Below, piece after piece: positions 2,210-36,258 of a stretch of DNA of 64,000 bases. The number at the start of each line of letters is the position of its first letter. Within the stretch, counting starts at the first letter, position 1. The position numbers were made by a program, and so were the translations under genes. Origin of the DNA: Escherichia coli (GTDB lineage: Bacteria > Pseudomonadota > Gammaproteobacteria > Enterobacterales > Enterobacteriaceae); assembly GCF_050920415.1 (NCBI RefSeq), contig NZ_CP169309.1; one strand, 5' to 3'. The notes beneath the pieces were generated by a model. It was not told the origin of the DNA and searched no databases. It saw only the letters and a program-made list of their open reading frames with translations.

Positions 2210-2340
2210 CCCGTAGGCCTGATAAGACGCGCAAGCGTCGCATCAGGCATCGCGTGTCGGATGCGGCGCGAGCGCCTTATCCGACCTACATCGGTGCTTC
2301 CCGTAGGCCTGATAAGACGCGTTAAGCGTCGCATCAGGCT
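2210..2340. repeat. REP/BIME cluster (three REP units in alternating orientation)
   Basis: Repeated gtaggcctgataagacgcg...gcgtcgcatcaggc palindromic units between sucC and sucB. Confidence 0.8.
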
Positions 2341-6609: not shown

Positions 6610-6690
6610 TTGTAGGCCGGATAACGCATTCACGCCGCATCCGGCACTGGTTGCCTGATGCGACGCTTGTGCGTCTTATCAGGCCTGGGT
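6610..6690. repeat. REP elements in sdhB-sucA intergenic region
   Basis: tgtaggccggataa...gcatccggca and gcctgatgcgacgc...gcgtcttatcaggcc palindromic units. Confidence 0.75.
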
Positions 6691-28347: not shown

Positions 28348-28893
28348 TCAGCTAGTTTCTGTCCATAGCTGCCCTTTCCATTCAAACGTGAAATCAATAA
28401 GTTCATCAGGGACATCGCAAACAATGTGAAGACGGATTTCTTCTCTGCCGTGACTCTTTTCACTAATTGCGTAACTGTCATGCTCTGGATTATTTAATTC
28501 TTTCAGCGGAAATTTTTCCTCGAAGGCTTTATTTAGCCGCCCCTGGTTTCCTTTTACAGCGAATAAATAATCACCTCCCTGTTTTTGTATCTTCTCTGCA
28601 ATATCTTTCTGGCAACCCATCGCATCAGTTGTGATGATTTTTCCTTTAATATCCAGCATGTTAAGAAGTTCCGGGGTAGCTGTAATCTCAATACCATTTT
28701 CAAAATCACCATATTGCTTCAAAAAATCGAGATGTGTTTCCCCAAAATCCTCTATATCTTCCCAACCTTCCGCACCCGAAATAACGGCGCAAATAGTCAA
28801 CAGTAGAATATCCGATAATTTATGCTCCACTTTCCAGGCTTGTCTGTAATCGGGGATAATAGAAATATGTTCCATCAATTTTTTAAGTTCCAT
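28348..28893 (-). pseudogene. ybfD: H-repeat-associated (ISAs1-family) transposase remnant, internally deleted and C-terminally truncated
   Basis: N-terminus [18 protein letters not shown]... typical of H-rpt proteins; only 181 aa where full length is about 378 aa; central region appears missing (recalled comparison). Confidence 0.7.
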
Positions 28894-29062
28894 TTTGTTC
28901 TCCTTAATTATGTAAGGAGTATTTGATCATGTATAAGCAATAAAAAACAGCTTCAGGTAATGAGGAATATCTCAATTTTTAAACATAAAATGCGAATTAT
29001 TTAGTACAAAAAAGCAGCGTTAAGTGAGTAGGCCACCGGAACCTCCCCGACAGCCTCTCGCA

Positions 29063-29096
29063 GAACCGTACGTGAAACTCTCGCTTCATACGGCTC
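29063..29096 (-). ncRNA. Group II intron ribozyme domain V
   Basis: Minus-strand GAGCCGTATGAAGCGAGAGTTTCACGTACGGTTC, 34 nt, with AGC triad and CGAGAG-type loop. Confidence 0.85.
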
Positions 29097-29099
29097 CCG

Positions 29100-30353
29100 T
29101 CAGGCAAACGCGCTTCCTGGTCCTGCTTTCCAGTGGGCAAACAACTCCGGCTTCTCTTTTGACAGCCTTTCCATTAGCTGACACGCCTTCGTCTTTCTAT
29201 ACCGCAGGGTTTTATATTTCTTTCTCGCCCACGCAATCAGCGTCAGATTAATATATCTGCATACTTTCTTCATCGCTGATTTGTGGTATCTCGCGTAATA
29301 ATTCAGCCACCCCGATATTATCGGATTCAGCCACTTCGCAATATCTTCGAGACTCATCTCCACCCTGCGTCTGATCCACAGTTTCCTGAGTTTTCCAATC
29401 ATGCCTTTCTGCGCACGGTTACTCGCCGCCGGGCTGAAACTCGTAAAGAGGTTTCCCCGCCGGTGGTTACGTGCTCTTCGCGCTCTGAACGTATACCCCA
29501 GAAAATCAAACTGCACTGTTTCATGGTTCGCCTGTCGTTCGCTGTCTTTGCAGTAAACTACTTTCGTTTTCTCCGGATGTAATTCCAGTCCACATTCCTG
29601 AAAACGTTTTGCCAGCTTATTCAGTAATTCCTCTGCCTGTTGTTTACTGCCACAATGAATTAATCCATCATCTGCATAACGGCACCAGGGAATTTCCGGA
29701 TAATGTAACGTCAGCCATTTATCAAACACATAGTGCAGAAATAAATTCGCCAGTACCGGGCTGATGACTCCACCCTGTGGCGTACCTTTATTTCTTTCCT
29801 TCAGTGTTCCATCCGGCATCTGCACCGGCGCTGTCAGCCACCGGCGAATAGACAGTCTTACCCATTTATCCGCACAATGTTTATCTACTGCCCTGAGTAA
29901 TAAATCGTGGGAGATATTATCGAATAACCCTTTAATATCAAACTCAAGACACCAGTCGTATTGCCAGCAACGTTTTCTGGTGACTGCTATTGCATCCAGC
30001 GCTGATTTTCCATGCCGGTATCCGTATGAATCATTCAGGAAATAACGCTCCACTAATGGTTCAAACGTTACCAGCACCGTCATCTGCGCTATTCGATCGC
30101 TTACTGTCGGTATTCCTAAAAGTCTTTTGCTGCCATCCTTCTTCGGAATTTCCACCGCACGCACTGGCGGCGGCATCCAGCTTCCCGACGATAACCTGTT
30201 CCAGATTTTGTACAGATTTCCTTTCAGATCCCGCTCAAAATCTTTCAGCGTCTGGTTATCCACTCCGGCAGCTCCGGCATTCGCCTTTATCCGCCGGTAC
30301 GCTTCCACCACATGCAATTTACTGACCTGAAACGGTTTTGTCTGTTCACACAC
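29100..30353 (-). CDS. Group II intron-encoded reverse transcriptase/maturase (no endonuclease domain)
   Basis: 417 aa; RT motifs LLGIPTVSDRIAQ and YADDGLI; C-terminal maturase X-like region; no HNH. Confidence 0.9.
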   Translation of the reverse strand: MCEQTKPFQVSKLHVVEAYRRIKANAGAAGVDNQTLKDFERDLKGNLYKIWNRLSSGSWMPPPVRAVEIPKKDGSKRLLGIPTVSDRIAQMTVLVTFEPLVERYFLNDSYGYRHGKSALDAIAVTRKRCWQYDWCLEFDIKGLFDNISHDLLLRAVDKHCADKWVRLSIRRWLTAPVQMPDGTLKERNKGTPQGGVISPVLANLFLHYVFDKWLTLHYPEIPWCRYADDGLIHCGSKQQAEELLNKLAKRFQECGLELHPEKTKVVYCKDSERQANHETVQFDFLGYTFRARRARNHRRGNLFTSFSPAASNRAQKGMIGKLRKLWIRRRVEMSLEDIAKWLNPIISGWLNYYARYHKSAMKKVCRYINLTLIAWARKKYKTLRYRKTKACQLMERLSKEKPELFAHWKAGPGSAFA

Positions 30354-30481
30354 AGCCTCCTCCTGCCTACAGTTGGGCTGTGATGCAGACTAGACTGGCC
30401 CCCTGAATCTCCAGACAACCAGTATCACTTAAATAAGTGATAGTCTTAATACTAGTTTTTAGACTAGTCATTGGAGAACAG

Positions 30482-30847
30482 ATGATTGATGTCTTAGGGC
30501 CGGAGAAACGCAGACGGCGTACCACACAGGAAAAGATCGCAATTGTTCAGCAGAGCTTTGAACCGGGGATGACGGTCTCCCTCGTTGCCCGGCAACATGG
30601 TGTAGCAGCCAGCCAGTTATTTCTCTGGCGTAAGCAATACCAGGAAGGAAGTCTTACTGCTGTCGCCGCCGGAGAACAGGTTGTTCCTGCCTCTGAACTT
30701 GCTGCCGCCATGAAGCAGATTAAAGAACTCCAGCGCCTGCTCGGCAAGAAAACGATGGAAAATGAACTCCTCAAAGAAGCCGTTGAATATGGACGGGCAA
30801 AAAAGTGGATAGCGCACGCGCCCTTATTGCCCGGGGATGGGGAGTAA
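30482..30847 (+). CDS. insC: IS2 OrfA (InsC)
   Basis: [30 protein letters not shown]... 121 aa. Confidence 0.93.
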
Positions 30848-31710
30848 GCTTAGTCAGCCGTTGTCTCCGGGTGTCGCGTGCGCAGTTGCACGTCATTCTC
30901 AGACGAACCGATGACTGGATGGATGGCCGCCGCAGTCGTCACACTGATGATACGGATGTGCTTCTCCGTATACACCATGTTATCGGAGAGCTGCCCACGT
31001 ATGGTTATCGTCGGGTATGGGCGCTGCTTCGCAGACAGGCAGAACTTGATGGTATGCCTGCAATCAATGCCAAACGTGTTTACCGGATCATGCGCCAGAA
31101 TGCGCTGTTGCTTGAGCGAAAACCTGCTGTACCGCCATCGAAACGGGCACATACAGGCAGAGTGGCCGTGAAAGAAAGCAATCAGCGATGGTGCTCTGAC
31201 GGGTTCGAGTTCTGCTGTGATAACGGAGAGAGACTGCGTGTCACGTTCGCGCTGGACTGCTGTGATCGTGAGGCACTGCACTGGGCGGTGACTACTGGCG
31301 GCTTCAACAGTGAAACAGTACAGGACGTCATGCTGGGAGCGGTGGAACGCCGCTTCGGCAACGATCTTCCGTCGTCTCCAGTGGAGTGGCTGACGGATAA
31401 TGGTTCATGCTACCGGGCTAATGAAACACGCCAGTTCGCCCGGATGTTGGGACTTGAACCGAAGAACACGGCGGTGCGGAGTCCGGAGAGTAACGGAATA
31501 GCAGAGAGCTTCGTGAAAACGATAAAGCGTGACTACATCAGTATCATGCCCAAACCAGACGGGTTAACGGCAGCAAAGAACCTTGCAGAGGCGTTCGAGC
31601 ATTATAACGAATGGCATCCGCATAGTGCGCTGGGTTATCGCTCGCCACGGGAATATCTGCGGCAGCGGGCTTGTAATGGGTTAAGTGATAACAGATGTCT
31701 GGAAATATAG
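30805..31710 (+). CDS. insD: IS2 OrfB transposase (InsD, DDE)
   Basis: 301 aa ORF overlapping insC in the -1 frame. Confidence 0.93.
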
Positions 31711-32342
31711 GGGCAAATCCACAGACTGCCCGACGCTGTCCCTTCGCTCCACGTTCATTACAAACGCTTCCTCACTACTACGAACAGCTCTGCCCCGGTT
31801 TCGCACATCGATACTCTCATACTCATAATTTCGGTTATTTGTATTTCTCTCTTGAAATTGCGACGACCGGTTCCCGTAGTTCCTGCAAAGAGCCTGATAC
31901 AGCGTCATGCCTGCTATACACCGGACACCATTCACGCAGCATTCGGAATTCACCCGTAAATTAATCCCGGCGGTATCACGAAACCTCCGGTTTTGATGTC
32001 ACTTAGGACTAACGACGTTTCAACACAGGTTCGGGTTTACTCATCTCACTGTATCTCACATAGGATCAGATCTCGTCTGATCGTTCCCCCTGCGCTCACT
32101 ACCATGGCTCTTTACCACAGCAGCCGGGGTTGTTTGGGACCGACTTCCGACAGCAGATCCCGGTGGGCCTGCCACCATCTCTTCACAAGCTTATGCTTAT
32201 TACATGCAAAACGTCCCGTTTTGCATCTTTGTGCCTACGGCACACGATGATCTTTCCCTGTACCACCTCCTCAGGAAGTGGTTTAAGGTTAATAACAAAA
32301 ATACCAATCATTTTAATAAAATATGACGAGTATTTATTTTCA

Positions 32343-32615
32343 TTATATTTTAAAGCATCCTAGCCCCTGCGATGCTCGCCATCGTTTTAACTCATCAACA
32401 ATCCCTTGGGGACTATCTTCTCTATCTTCAGATGGATAGAATATCAAATCACTACCATCTGGGTGCTGAGTGATTCTAATAAAATGACTTACAAGATCAT
32501 CAATAAACTTCGACAATTTATCGCCATGCAATTCCTCAGGTGGTTCAAAAAAATTATTTAGAAGTTCGATAAATTCATCTTCCGTATAATCTTCTAGATT
32601 ATTTTTAAACTCCAT
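32343..32615 (-). CDS. Colicin/pyocin DNase immunity protein (Im9-like)
   Basis: 90 aa; aligns with recalled Im9: DYTE.EF, HP(D/S)GSDLI(F/Y)YP, (D/E)DSP.GIV, (K/Q)WRA; starts 14 nt after the vgrG stop. Confidence 0.88.
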   Translation of the reverse strand: MEFKNNLEDYTEDEFIELLNNFFEPPEELHGDKLSKFIDDLVSHFIRITQHPDGSDLIFYPSEDREDSPQGIVDELKRWRASQGLGCFKI

Positions 32616-32629
32616 TACTACCTCCTTTT

Positions 32630-35600
32630 TTATTTATGCAATCGTATGTGGTTTTTAGGTGTGTTTACTCTAAGATTATCAATATCATAGACTTCTCCCC
32701 CATATTGGATTTCGTCAATATGATGAATTTCAAATGTACCTCGCCCCCCAACTCTTTGTCTTGATATAGTATAAGGTGCGCGTCCACGCTTTATCAACGT
32801 TTGGTTAGCTTTATTAAATTGGCTCAATAGTTCTGGACATTCACCTACAGCAGTCCAGAAAGCTGCCCTGAATTCATCAAAATTGTTAAATGACTTACTC
32901 CGAAGTTTATTTGCGACCTGTTGTGGAATTGGCACTCCTAAGCTTTTCCCCGCCTGCGACAGCCATCTTCCTGTACCTGCTAACACCTCCCCCTTACCTG
33001 TTACTGTTCCCGCTTCATCCCTTGCAGTTTTCAGATACACATATATTGGTGTTAATTCCGCACCGTCAGGAAAGACAAGTATCCAGTCATTAAAATTTCG
33101 CTCCTCCGGCATTGGAGAAGGCGGCGTGGTGATATCTGTTTTTTCATCGGGTATCGGATTAACATAAATATCAGGTAGATCAACTGGTTCGACAGGAGTT
33201 CCGGTGTGTATGGGCTGCTCTGAACCTTCTGGCTTTGCAGGCGTCCAAAATATTTTTGGTCCCGAATCAGACACAGGTGAAAATTCATAACGGGAAAATT
33301 CCTTATTCCACTCCATCAATGCTACCCGAACACCTTCAAGTTCCGAACCTGCGGGTGTGTGGTATCCGTATGTTCTCAATTCACCAGCAGTATTCCGCTG
33401 AAAGAGAAAGCGCGCCCGCGTAGCTGCCGTCTCTCCAGATTGCGCTTTACGACGTAGCTCATTTTCGAGCCACTGTTCATCCCGTCCAGGAACTTTATCA
33501 CTACCTTCACCGGCAGGTATTGGATATAGTGCTGATACTAGAACACCAAGGGCTGGCACCGTTTTTGATACACTTAAAAAACCTTCTCCACCCCATGCCC
33601 CTAATGTTCCCCATACGCGAGTTAAAACTCCCGCAGACTGTTCCGCCGCTAGTGGAACCGCAACACCCGCTGACGCAACTGTCATTTCCCCCGTCAGTGA
33701 GTTCGCTCCTGAAGTTTTTTTTGCTGACTGCGCAAGTTGCTCCACTTCATCGTCATGATAGTGTGTACCATAGCCGCAACAGTCATCCTCCACTGGCTGG
33801 GCAAATAGAGCCATATCACCAAAATGTTTCGATGGCTCCATGGTCGTACCAGCATCAGTGCAGCCTTTCTCCTTCAGACAAGATTTTGCGTATACAGGAA
33901 TTACCAGTTCATCTGAATCGTCCTTGTCTTCTTCTCCACCTTCTGATTCATCCTCATCACTAGGCTCTCCGTCATTCCCGCCGCCAGCATTCCCTCTGTC
34001 ATACTGCTCGTCAGCCAGAGCGTCCATAACTGCCGGTTGTAGTGTATTTATCGGCGTCCCCGGACTGCCCCCGCCATTCAGATTTATTTTCGGTCCGACA
34101 ATATCCACACCACCAGAATGAACGACCACAAACGAGCCCCCCACCTTCAGGCTTATCCGGCTGCTGCTCTCCAGCACGATATCCCCGTCCACCTTGATCC
34201 CCAGCGCGCCACTCACCTTCTCCGCCAGGTCGCCCTTCACCTCCAGACTGTGCGTTCCCTCCACCAGACTGATATGGTTCCCCGTCGTCTTATGCTCCTG
34301 CTTCCCTTCCACCGTCACTTTACGGTCGTTTCTGACATACAGGCCGTCATCGTGACTCACGCTCACCGTCCGGTCATTCGTCACCTTCAGCGTCTGGTCA
34401 TTACGTACCGTTATGCGCCGGTCGTTCGCCACCGTGATACTCTGGTCGTGACCCCCTTCTTTTCTGGTGCCGACCTCAACCGTCTGCCCCTTCACCACCC
34501 TTATCTTCTGGTCGTTACCGATGGTCTCCGTATGGTCATGCTTCACGTCCGTCCGCCGGTCGTTAAGCACCTCCGTGTCCATGTTCTTCTGCGCGTGGAT
34601 ATACACCTGCTCACTGTCCGTCGCATCCTCGAAACGCAGTTCATTAAAGCCGCTTCCTTTATAGGTCTTCGAGCGGATGGTCATCTGCGTCCGCGTGCCC
34701 GGTAAATCCCCCGGTGAACGGTTGTCCTCATGGTATGTCCGCCCCGTCACAATGGGCTGGTCCGGGTCGCCGTTCAGAAAGTCCACTATCACTTCCTGAC
34801 CCACACGCGGTATCGCCAGATTGCCGAACCCCGGTCCCGCCCATGCCTGCGACACCCGTATCCAGCATGAACTCTCCTCCGTCATCCCGTGATAACGGTC
34901 CCAGTGAAACTTCACCCGTACCCGGCCATGTTCGTCGCAGAATATCTCCTCGCCCTTCGGCCCGGTCACAATGGCACTCTGCGGGCCGTCCACCTTCGGC
35001 TTCGGCAGCGGCGCGTGACGCCACGTCCTGTCTGCCGGTATCACCTCAAACTGATTGCTCAGTGTCGTCCCTTCACCGTGACTCCCGTGCAGCGCCTGCG
35101 GCTGTTCTCCCCGCAGTGTGCTTCCCACAACCTGCCATTCCCGGTTCAGCGTCCCTGACGGATGGCCCGTCAGCCGGAACCGCGTTCCCGGCCACAGTCG
35201 CGCCGTGTTACACACCCCGCTCGCCGTCTCCGCCCCGTTCCGCCACCCTTCCGTCTGGTAACGCGCAAAATCCTGGCCATGCTGCTCATCCTTGAAACGC
35301 CCCGGATAATCAAATATCTCGTACTGCGTTCCCTGCCCGTTCAGGCTCTCCCCGTCATGGCTGTAGTACCCCGGCCACCCCGGCGTTTTGAACGTATAAT
35401 CCTGCGTCTCCACCGACGCCACGCTTATCTGCGCACGGTAACGGAAGTCGCTGATGTACTCTGTCGTGCCTCCGGTCGTGGTATTCGGGTTAAACGCCAG
35501 CGCCCCCATTCCCGTCAGCCCCGCCACGTCATCACACACCGCCAGCTTCTGTTCCGGCCCGTCCTGACTGCAGCGTTCATAAAAGAAGATACCTTCCTCC

Positions 35601-36085
35601 GCCCACAGCCGGGTCAGGAATGTCAGGTCGCTCTCCCCGTACTGCACGCAGAACTCCCGCGCCGGGTGCGCCTCATAGAACAGCGGCATCCACGCCGTCA
35701 CCCCGTTCTCTCTCAGAAGCTGTGCTGATATCGTCCCTATGTCCTGCTGCTGGAAGATACGGAAGTTCTGCCGTAACCCTGCCCGCCACAGCGGCGGGCT
35801 GATGCTCAGGGAATAACGCATCTGCCAGTCGTTGTTCTCACCGAGCTGCACCTCCGTCACGATACCGCTGACGTAACGCTGCGGGATATCACCCTGCCAG
35901 ACCGTCAGCACCGCGCTCTTCTCCAGAAAATCCTCCGCCGTCAGGTCAGACAGCCCGCTGGCGATATCCACATCCAGGATGAACGGCGTGCAGTGGTGCT
36001 GGTACAGACGGAAGCTCACCACCGCCGTCGCCATCTCCACGATACCGGCCACCGACAGCGTGAAACGTAATCCTTCTGAGGACAT
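32630..36085 (-). CDS. vgrG: Specialized VgrG spike protein fused to a C-terminal S-type-pyocin-like region and colicin E9-type HNH DNase
   Basis: N-terminal VgrG core (MSSEGLRFTL..., gp5-like VTVANDRRITVRNDQTLKVTNDRTVSVSHDD repeats); acidic linker; C-terminus GGRGTFEIHHIDEIQYGGEVYDIDNLRVNTPKNHIRLHK. Start taken at internal MSSEGLRF; the track ORF extends to 36118. Confidence 0.9.
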   Translation of the reverse strand: MSSEGLRFTLSVAGIVEMATAVVSFRLYQHHCTPFILDVDIASGLSDLTAEDFLEKSAVLTVWQGDIPQRYVSGIVTEVQLGENNDWQMRYSLSISPPLWRAGLRQNFRIFQQQDIGTISAQLLRENGVTAWMPLFYEAHPAREFCVQYGESDLTFLTRLWAEEGIFFYERCSQDGPEQKLAVCDDVAGLTGMGALAFNPNTTTGGTTEYISDFRYRAQISVASVETQDYTFKTPGWPGYYSHDGESLNGQGTQYEIFDYPGRFKDEQHGQDFARYQTEGWRNGAETASGVCNTARLWPGTRFRLTGHPSGTLNREWQVVGSTLRGEQPQALHGSHGEGTTLSNQFEVIPADRTWRHAPLPKPKVDGPQSAIVTGPKGEEIFCDEHGRVRVKFHWDRYHGMTEESSCWIRVSQAWAGPGFGNLAIPRVGQEVIVDFLNGDPDQPIVTGRTYHEDNRSPGDLPGTRTQMTIRSKTYKGSGFNELRFEDATDSEQVYIHAQKNMDTEVLNDRRTDVKHDHTETIGNDQKIRVVKGQTVEVGTRKEGGHDQSITVANDRRITVRNDQTLKVTNDRTVSVSHDDGLYVRNDRKVTVEGKQEHKTTGNHISLVEGTHSLEVKGDLAEKVSGALGIKVDGDIVLESSSRISLKVGGSFVVVHSGGVDIVGPKINLNGGGSPGTPINTLQPAVMDALADEQYDRGNAGGGNDGEPSDEDESEGGEEDKDDSDELVIPVYAKSCLKEKGCTDAGTTMEPSKHFGDMALFAQPVEDDCCGYGTHYHDDEVEQLAQSAKKTSGANSLTGEMTVASAGVAVPLAAEQSAGVLTRVWGTLGAWGGEGFLSVSKTVPALGVLVSALYPIPAGEGSDKVPGRDEQWLENELRRKAQSGETAATRARFLFQRNTAGELRTYGYHTPAGSELEGVRVALMEWNKEFSRYEFSPVSDSGPKIFWTPAKPEGSEQPIHTGTPVEPVDLPDIYVNPIPDEKTDITTPPSPMPEERNFNDWILVFPDGAELTPIYVYLKTARDEAGTVTGKGEVLAGTGRWLSQAGKSLGVPIPQQVANKLRSKSFNNFDEFRAAFWTAVGECPELLSQFNKANQTLIKRGRAPYTISRQRVGGRGTFEIHHIDEIQYGGEVYDIDNLRVNTPKNHIRLHK

Positions 36086-36258
36086 ATAAACCCCATAGCT
36101 ACCGCACTCATGGTGCAAACCATACGGGCTTATAAGAAAGGCTTAAGTGAGATATCTGCCAGATAGCAACTATTAGGAAAATATTTATATATATTTCATG
36201 AATATATATTTCGGTTGGTATAACGGTGTCTAAATATTCCTCTGAACATCTTCCTGAT

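Follow-up and report, generated by a model that had tools for sequence, protein, structure and literature searches.

A recent IS2 insertion in domain IV of group II intron E.c.I9, within an ISEc1 remnant of Escherichia coli, that likely cripples the intron copy

The group II intron E.c.I9 of Escherichia coli belongs to bacterial class D and has been described as full-length in ATCC 8739 (Leclercq & Cordaux 2012, PMC3522654) and as 5' fragments of 193 nt in O157:H7 and others and of 159 nt in BL21/REL606 (Tables S2/S3, PMC3522654). It is about 1.9 kb long, encodes a reverse transcriptase (RT) without an endonuclease domain and homes into an Rhs-associated insertion sequence, ISEc1/H-rpt (PMC3522654). 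Disruption by an insertion sequence is a recognised decay route of bacterial group II introns, and one mobile element inactivating another is seen both in an RmInt1-type copy that has a 3.8-kb fragment with a transposase inserted at nt 487 (PMC4181065) and in other E.c.I9 copies, which were found broken by IS1 or IS21. Foreign DNA has likewise been placed in domain IV of Ll.LtrB targetrons with the catalytic domains left untouched; cargo in domain IV(b) is tolerated there at reduced efficiency and rarely delivered above ~0.6-1 kb, and domain IV is the insertion-tolerant domain of group II introns. We describe here an E.c.I9 copy in a window of 64,000 nt from E. coli (contig NZ_CP169309.1; the window is the whole stretch that was analysed) that differs from the published intron by a complete IS2 inside domain IV. 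From the other insertion-disrupted introns it differs by the kind of element and its position, here the base of domain IV and the first codons of the RT, and by being a singleton whose empty-site sister allele is known.

The locus is nested three deep, with an ISEc1 remnant at the vgrG-pyocin-immunity/ybgA locus (rhsC region) holding E.c.I9 at the usual homing site of the intron, and E.c.I9 holding IS2. The outermost element, ISEc1/H-rpt of the ISAs1 family, is present with its left end on the minus strand (32246..32260, CAGGGAAAGATCATC), which forms the 5' exon of the intron and is where homology with other ISEc1 copies begins. Only 15 nt thus separate the intron from the left terminus of ISEc1, and the VgrG-pyocin/immunity island is next to it. 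On the other side of the intron, also on the minus strand, the remainder (28348..29023) comprises the 3' exon together with a transposase ORF that is truncated (28893..28348, 181 aa, the first 181 codons), followed by ybgA. The left end and the N-terminal transposase are therefore those of ISEc1, while the complete transposase of ~378 aa is lacking, and the sister-strain annotation reads 'ISAs1 family transposase, incomplete, missing C-terminus'. This ISEc1 element is an old truncated remnant rather than a functional member. A literature search that paired H-rpt with a group II intron gave no match.

Intron boundaries were set by intron-less ISEc1 copies and by the end of homology with distant relatives, which led to an intron at 29024..32245 on the minus strand with a length of 3222 nt as found, or 1886 nt without IS2 and one copy of the target repeat. 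It starts with 5' GUGUG at 32245, and its 3' end, CUACUCAC, is kept in all nine relatives. A domain I segment (32059..32176, minus strand) matched the Rfam family RF01999 (group-II-D1D4-2) over its full length, 118/118 positions, with 93.1 bits compared with a gathering score of 36, and domains V and VI (29024..29098, minus strand; AGC triad, bulged A, 3' ...CUCAC) were matched by Intron_gpII (RF00029) at 29098..29023 with 62.8 bits. In the alignment of relatives a compensated C-G/G-C pair was seen in domain V. Together with an RT carrying a maturase (X) domain, the ends and domains I, V and VI are those of a mobile group II intron, and the preliminary description, which had recognised an IS2 nested in an intron, agrees with these Rfam domains and with RVT_1/GIIM on the minus strand with IS2 lying inside. 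The 5' remnants in BL21 (159 nt, nt 1-159) and O157:H7 (193 nt, nt 1-193) match the window intron, and from this published fragment pattern, rather than an alignment to a reference sequence, the intron was identified as E.c.I9; the class D label is taken from the table in PMC3522654. E.c.I1 or E.c.I2 had been suspected at first; the related E.c.I2 was rejected, its like copies being only ~71% identical, and the fragment pattern decided for E.c.I9. On inspection by eye, GAUGA near intron nt 205 might base-pair with UCAUC, the five final bases of the exon, and no convincing EBS2 was seen.

The innermost element was confirmed as a complete IS2 of the IS3 family with intact ends, as first described. 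It occupies 30391..31721 on the plus strand, is the only IS2 copy in the window and is transcribed antisense to the intron. Alignment with IS2A of K-12 MG1655 (NC_000913.3 381260-382590) was end-to-end and gapless over 1331 bp with five mismatches (1326/1331 bases, 99.6%), and both termini coincide exactly with the edges of homology to this annotated copy; other E. coli IS2 copies are 99.9% identical to the window element. The left inverted repeat (IRL; 30391..30432, plus strand, 42 bp) starts with TAGACTGG and adjoins the orfA promoter region, and the right one (IRR; 31681..31721, plus strand, 41 bp) contains CAAATCCA and ends with GGGGCAAATCCA, the two being alike at 31 of 42 aligned positions. 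The plus strand also carries orfA (insC; 30482..30847, 121 aa) and an open orfB (insD; 30805..31710, 301 aa), in positions that agree with insC1 and insD1 of K-12, joined by a -1 frameshift at the A6G motif AAAAAAG (30799..30805). The length, the repeats, the two ORFs with their A6G site, the 5-bp target duplication and the near-identity are thus all those of IS2. The window element shares with IS2A its length, termini, orfA/orfB layout, A6G site and the size of the duplication, which is ATTAC for the K-12 copy, and differs only by the five point changes and a new insertion site.

IS2 is flanked by a perfect repeat of CAGAC on the plus strand (30386..30390 and 31722..31726), the right copy of which corresponds to intron nt 520-524 (GUCUG) and the left copy to GTCTG on the intron strand. 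In MFDS1022581, the sister strain, the site is empty within 18.5 kb of 99.94-99.99% identity, and as this allele holds a single GTCTG and no IS2, the two copies in the window are a genuine target duplication rather than a coincidence. IS2 has transposed into the intron by the usual route of the IS3 family, with 5 bp duplicated. MFDS1022581 is also unusually rich in IS2, with 20 places on the chromosome and 11 on plasmids compared with a genome median of 4, which fits such an event. A search of 5,426 complete E. coli genomes did not find the filled allele, and neither it nor the exact right junction was found in metagenome contigs. With IS2 taken out, the intron equals (100.0% identity, 1886 nt) a copy at a Tle1 locus whose ltrA is annotated as intact, and this comparison gave no sign of an intron defect that predates IS2. 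As a near-identical strain has the empty site, the filled site is absent elsewhere and the IS2-free intron equals an intact copy, the insertion is very recent, as had been suspected from the clean duplication.

The position of the insertion within the intron has to be read differently from the preliminary description, which had placed it in the 5' ribozyme region, between the presumed domains I-III and the RT start. Covariation defines a domain III helix (nt 458-464 with 505-511; 31735..31788, minus strand), in which both partners vary at three of seven pairs and paired cells make up 96.8%, followed directly by the 5' strand of the basal helix of domain IV (nt 512-520, 31726..31734, minus strand, GUCGGGCAG). 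Its 3' strand (nt 1803-1811, 29099..29107, minus strand, UUGCCUGAC) holds the RT stop codon. This basal helix is 95% paired, two of its pairs change on both sides, and sliding of the partner columns lowers the pairing to 32-57%. The IS2 target (nt 520-524) begins with the final base of the 5' strand (nt 520), which puts IS2 at the inner edge of the domain IV basal helix and leaves domains I-III and V-VI unbroken. The intron 5' piece upstream of IS2 (nt 1-524, 31722..32245, minus strand) accordingly comprises domains I-III, the 5' strand of the domain IV helix and 12 RT codons.

These codons belong to a reading frame whose start is the conserved AUG of the family (intron nt 488; 31756..31758, minus strand). 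This AUG is part of domain III, within the covarying helix, and opens the RefSeq 440-aa ltrA model (1323 nt, beginning at nt 488). The first eight codons of the RT ORF are in domain III, and the domain IV basal helix surrounds the rest. IS2 was inserted 33 nt 3' of this start codon and 33 nt 5' of an in-frame GTG, and it severs the native 440-aa frame after codon 12. What remains is an ORF of 417 aa (29100..30353, minus strand) that begins with this GTG (nt 557) after AGGAGGAGG, where a strong Shine-Dalgarno motif, AGGAGG, is found at a spacing of 5 nt, and that contains RVT_1 (E=2e-41) and GIIM (E=3e-13) but no endonuclease domain (Pfam). As the conserved start of the family lies upstream of IS2, the RT ORF has not been left intact, contrary to what had been described. 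Five of five sampled relatives with 440 or 441 aa have no in-frame start codon further downstream. In all three sampled relatives with 416 aa the conserved AUG opens an upstream ORF of 25-26 codons that ends on the RT start, and in two of these the overlap is ATGA or GTGA. We therefore claim, on a comparative basis of nine sequences only, that the AUG at nt 488 is the real translation start of the RT. An AUG in domain III, fused to the RT or else coupled with it via a short upstream ORF, would then be a feature of the family, and it bears on the annotation of RT start codons in class D introns.

A broken fold of the catalytic 5' part of the ribozyme with a complete RT gene left stranded, as the preliminary description had it, gains some ground with the GTG at 30353 as the RT start, since IS2 then does lie between this start and domains I-III. 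The good Shine-Dalgarno motif of the GTG and the length of 417 aa, close to that of the 416-aa homologues, speak for such a start. However, this codon is missing even in E. coli-type relatives of 79-97% identity (AGH, AEY, AGG and AAG compared with AVC in the window), which suggests a lineage-specific GTG, and nt 488, which precedes IS2, is the start both in the RefSeq models and in the 440/441-aa relatives. As the covarying domain III helix and the 5' strand of domain IV are also upstream of IS2 and the catalytic domains are whole, covariation already largely refutes this explanation, and we consider it unlikely.

From the exact termini, the empty sister allele, the covarying helices and the position of the conserved start codon, the locus is very likely a recent IS2 insertion in domain IV of an E.c.I9 copy in an ISEc1 remnant that cuts the RT frame and probably cripples this copy. 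Its own normal RT expression would be lost, and the intron RNA would need transcription through 1.3 kb of antisense IS2; for these two reasons the copy is most likely dead or severely crippled for retrohoming. Splicing may be lost, as the preliminary description had expected, and some residual splicing with RT in trans may be possible because the catalytic RNA domains are intact. Such RT could come from other intron copies. A functional RT might also still be made from the remnant ORF, given its strong Shine-Dalgarno motif and its colinearity with natural 416-aa relatives. The host would lose nothing by the insertion, since the 'exons' of this intron are non-coding DNA of a defunct insertion sequence. 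As all three elements are known at at least 99% identity, this is an ordinary case of little importance in itself. Nevertheless, because the filled and empty alleles are otherwise alike in their flanking DNA (99.94-99.99%), the locus offers a clean case, open to dating, of an intron being inactivated in Enterobacteriales, and the insertion may serve as a strain-specific marker for typing the lineage.

The same intact parts would also be expected if the IS2-bearing intron were a working retroelement with IS2 as a domain IV cargo, which splices and perhaps homes. The catalytic domains and both strands of the domain IV basal helix are complete, Ll.LtrB tolerates cargo in this domain at lowered efficiency, three places in the sister strain match the intron (one at 100% identity), and no intrinsic terminator was predicted on either strand within 30200-32400. 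In Ll.LtrB targetrons, however, the cargo is in the distal loop of an intron of a different class and the RT is supplied separately, whereas the window insert comprises 1.3 kb in antisense orientation, exceeding the ~0.6-1 kb above which targetron cargo is rarely delivered, and it cuts the RT translation unit at the base of the helix, beside the conserved CAACUG/AGGAGG region. IS2 insertions are classically polar, and a second composite copy is absent from the 5,426 genomes and the metagenome contigs, which makes a working element quite improbable. Its strongest form, a living E.c.I9 whose 3.2-kb composite splices and retrohomes so that the intron acts as a vehicle for the insertion sequence, would have domain IV close around IS2 and the RNA bound either by the 417-aa remnant RT, made from its own AGGAGG-GTG, or by RT of a sister copy; we regard it as very improbable.

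It had further been proposed that IS2 creates an outward-reading hybrid promoter. The geometry is indeed as stated, with the IRR facing the antisense strand of the intron 5' region, the immunity gene and vgrG, and according to a review (PMC9330008) the IRR of IS2 provides an outward -35. The right end of IS2 alone, on the other hand, has no detectable promoter activity (PMC12095673). Within the IRR a -35-like hexamer, TGGAAA (31700-31705), points outward, and the duplicated CAGAC with the next T gives CAGACT 16 nt after it; this TGGAAA-16-CAGACT was the best junction-spanning pair in a relaxed scan and matches at just 7/12 positions. The hexamers of Pjunc, the IS2 junction promoter on the circularised element, were read by us from the sequence. 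A standard promoter scan detected nothing at either end of IS2 and two sites in the whole region, the number expected by chance, and an outward hybrid promoter was rejected as a supported feature. The allele is, moreover, a singleton among the 5,426 genomes and metagenome contigs without a sign of spread, and the chance that the insertion was selected for regulation, by antisense RNA from such a promoter against the intron 5' region, immunity gene and VgrG-pyocin or by IS2 driving the remnant RT, is very slight indeed.

An assembly artefact, in which a repeat-induced misjoin put an IS2 copy here, is next to negligible: this lineage has many copies of IS2, and misassembly classically arises at repeats of this kind, but both junctions are exact IS2 termini with colinear flanks, and a misjoin would not create the perfect 5-bp target duplication. 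In the neighbouring island, a difference in the VgrG-pyocin ORF between the window and the sister strain was considered and rejected, as the DNA is identical in both and the annotation alone differs.

A complete IS2 of 1331 bp lies at 30391-31721 (+), as the preliminary description had proposed. Alignment to the annotated K-12 IS2A was gapless over the full length with 5 mismatches, similarity ended exactly at both termini, and the element is 99.9% identical to IS2 copies of other strains. Its inverted repeats of 42 bp and 41 bp match at 31 of 42 aligned positions, and orfA (30482-30847, +, 121 aa), orfB (30805-31710, +, 301 aa) and the frameshift site AAAAAAG (30799, +) are intact. Direct repeats of CAGAC at 30386-30390 and 31722-31726 flank the element, and a single GTCTG at this site in the sister strain E. 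coli MFDS1022581, which lacks IS2 here, confirmed the suspected perfect 5-bp duplication. Both loci are 99.94-99.99% identical over 18.5 kb with IS2 plus 5 bp as the sole structural difference. Moreover, a search of 5,426 complete genomes gave no record that covers at least 80% of the IS2-bearing allele, and the exact right IS2 junction was not found in metagenome contigs; empty site and missing filled allele together bear out a recent insertion. The window holds no second IS2. IS2 itself was found in 4,853 of the 5,426 genomes, where the median is 4 places, compared to 20 chromosomal and 11 plasmid places in MFDS1022581 (H1, H2); this lineage thus seems to be undergoing an IS2 expansion.

The host of IS2 is a minus-strand group II intron, recognised by Rfam matches to a domain I segment (group-II-D1D4-2, 32176..32059, 93 bits) and to domains V/VI (Intron_gpII, 29098..29023, 63 bits), with an ORF between them that carries RVT_1 and GIIM domains but lacks an endonuclease domain. 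Intron-less copies of the ISAs1-family element ISEc1/H-rpt and the limits of homology to eight distant relatives set its boundaries at GUGUG (5' end, 32245) and ...CUACUCAC (3' end, 29024), corresponding to a length of 3222 nt in its present state, or 1886 nt without IS2 and one repeat copy. It sits 15 nt inside the left end of ISEc1/H-rpt (CAGGGAAAGATCATC, 32260-32246), whose transposase is cut to 181 codons and directly followed by ybgA. The order of the wider locus is kdp - ybfA - vgrG/S-type-pyocin - immunity - [ISEc1::intron::IS2] - ybgA - phrB, with three elements nested in one another.

Full-length copies of the reconstructed intron are present in only 83 of the 5,426 genomes, and a 5' stump alone, of 193 nt (O157:H7 and other strains) or 159 nt (BL21), occurs in about 2,500. 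E.c.I9 has been published as a class D intron, full-length in ATCC 8739, with fragments of '193 bp' and '159 bp' and homing into Rhs IS (PMC3522654). We identify the intron as E.c.I9 from this exactly equal fragment pattern; the related E.c.I2 is only about 71% identical. Other E.c.I9 copies are interrupted by IS1 (H25, H31-35) or IS21 (H56), and the excess of stumps together with such IS-broken full-length copies fits the published intron extinction in Enterobacteriales. As interruption by transposase-bearing DNA has also been described for an RmInt1-type intron (PMC4181065), the phenomenon is ordinary: all components are known elements, and their arrangement is a routine nested insertion of a kind already known.

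To locate IS2 in the intron RNA, DNA of eight relatives (RT proteins about 60-73% identical) was aligned around the RT start and before domain V. Two covarying helices were obtained. The domain III helix pairs intron nt 458-464 (numbered without IS2) with 505-511, with 96.8% of cells paired and 3 of 7 pairs changed on both sides. The second helix pairs nt 512-520 (GUCGGGCAG) with 1803-1811 (UUGCCUGAC, containing the RT stop codon), with 95.1% of cells paired and two-sided changes in 2 of 9 pairs (C-G to U-A; G-C to A-U). Sliding the 3' partner columns by 1-3 positions led to pairing of 32-57% for both helices together. Since the ORF lies within the second helix, with GG and then domain V coming after it, this helix is assigned as the domain IV basal helix. 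The IS2 target GUCUG corresponds to nt 520-524 and starts on the last base of this helix, which places IS2 at the base of domain IV and not, as in the preliminary description, in the 5' ribozyme region. Domains I-III are intact, as are domains V and VI and both basal-helix strands.

The RT ORF, previously regarded as intact, is most probably not. RefSeq gene models of 1323 nt (440 aa) take as their start the ATG of intron nt 488 (window 31758-31756), and IS2 lies 33 nt downstream, severing the first 12 codons; the severed piece reads MNVERRDSVGQS, continues into IS2 and ends after 25 codons. The 120 homologues comprise proteins of 440/441 aa beginning MNVERRGS...QEE...TKPF and proteins of 416 aa beginning M-x-x-TKPF. 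In the nucleotide alignment both classes share the conserved block GUAGUAGUGAGGAAG..UUGUAAUGAAyGUGGAGCGAAGGG, which contains the AUG. Since conservation extends to third codon positions, this block belongs to ribozyme domain III. As no in-frame ATG, GTG or TTG was found near the short-class start position in five 440/441-aa relatives, the domain III AUG must be used there. In three 416-aa relatives this AUG is the start of an upstream ORF of 25-26 codons, which stops on the RT start codon in two (ATGA, GTGA) and 8 nt into the RT gene in the third, an arrangement suggesting translational coupling. Within these nine sequences only, the conserved domain III AUG of this class D family has two uses, in-frame fusion to the RT or the opening of an upstream ORF. 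The window has an in-frame GTG at 30353 preceded by AGGAGGAGG, not conserved even among relatives 79-97% identical. By comparative inference we place the native start of RT expression at nt 488 and conclude that IS2 cuts it. The 417-aa remnant from the GTG aligns colinearly with those relatives that are short by nature and could possibly be a functional protein.

The intron RNA would now need transcription across 1.3 kb of antisense IS2, where no intrinsic terminator is predicted. For Ll.LtrB, both splicing and retrohoming become less efficient when domain IV carries cargo, with delivery being rare above about 0.6-1 kb. Antisense transcription, cargo cost and the lost native start taken together, this copy is most likely immobile, and splicing, which the preliminary description expected to be abolished, may be lost as well. 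The host would lose nothing, as the 'exons' on either side belong to a truncated IS and are non-coding.

An intron already defective before IS2 arrived, as considered in the preliminary description, is not what we found: with IS2 taken out, all 1886 nt of the intron agree (100.0% identity) with the Tle1-locus copy of MFDS1022581, whose ltrA is annotated as intact (WP_001100279.1), and the reconstructed 440-codon frame is open. RT residue 191 (window 29849-29851) is Ser, with Tyr in 115 of 117 homologues and in E. coli strain N96, and 15 other well-conserved positions also depart from the homologues, among them Ser98 (Gly in 116) and His137 (Pro in 113). Such departures may lower RT activity, IS2 apart, and the protein may not have been fully active before the insertion.

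Comparison of window 28789-31856 (minus IS2) with the same-locus and Tle1-locus copies of MFDS1022581 gave seven differences to the former, all within the intron/ISEc1 tract (31856, 30261, 29686, 29561, 28897, 28825 and 28789), of which the one at 29686 is a 1-bp indel and puts ltrA of the same-locus copy out of frame. The window agrees with the Tle1-locus copy at 7/7 sites, matches the same-locus copy again from 28771 onward and shows zero differences to it in the remaining ~16 kb. The pattern resembles a tract of gene conversion between copies of the intron; if the window copy is the converted one, conversion must predate the IS2 insertion.

Regarding an outward hybrid promoter, the suggested geometry holds, as IRR (31681-31721) points to higher coordinates, antisense to the intron 5' part, the bacteriocin immunity gene (32343-32615, -) and the vgrG-pyocin ORF (32630-36118, -). 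The promoter itself is unsupported. IRR is known to supply a -35, for which the flanking DNA must provide a -10 at the right spacing (PMC9330008), and the right end by itself is promoter-silent (PMC12095673). The best candidate across the junction, TGGAAA-16 nt-CAGACT, reached 7/12 matches, and a standard scan gave nothing at either IS2 end, its 2 sites in the region equalling chance expectation.

The interval from the immunity gene to the left end of ISEc1 contains a stem-loop, CCACTTCC-TGA-GGAGGTGG (32264-32282, -), with no T-run after it. The intron may owe its transcription to read-through of the effector/immunity operon. The vgrG-pyocin ORF is a single frame of 1162 codons, in which a VgrG-like N-terminal part is fused to an S-type pyocin domain, with the immunity gene after it; in MFDS1022581 the DNA is identical, but RefSeq annotates two features there, a 'tssI pseudogene' and, separately, a pyocin-domain protein. 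Unrelated to IS2 and the intron, two REP-derived naRNA4 (CssrE) matches were detected at 2216-2286 (-) and 6615-6685 (+), with 76.5 and 73 bits respectively.
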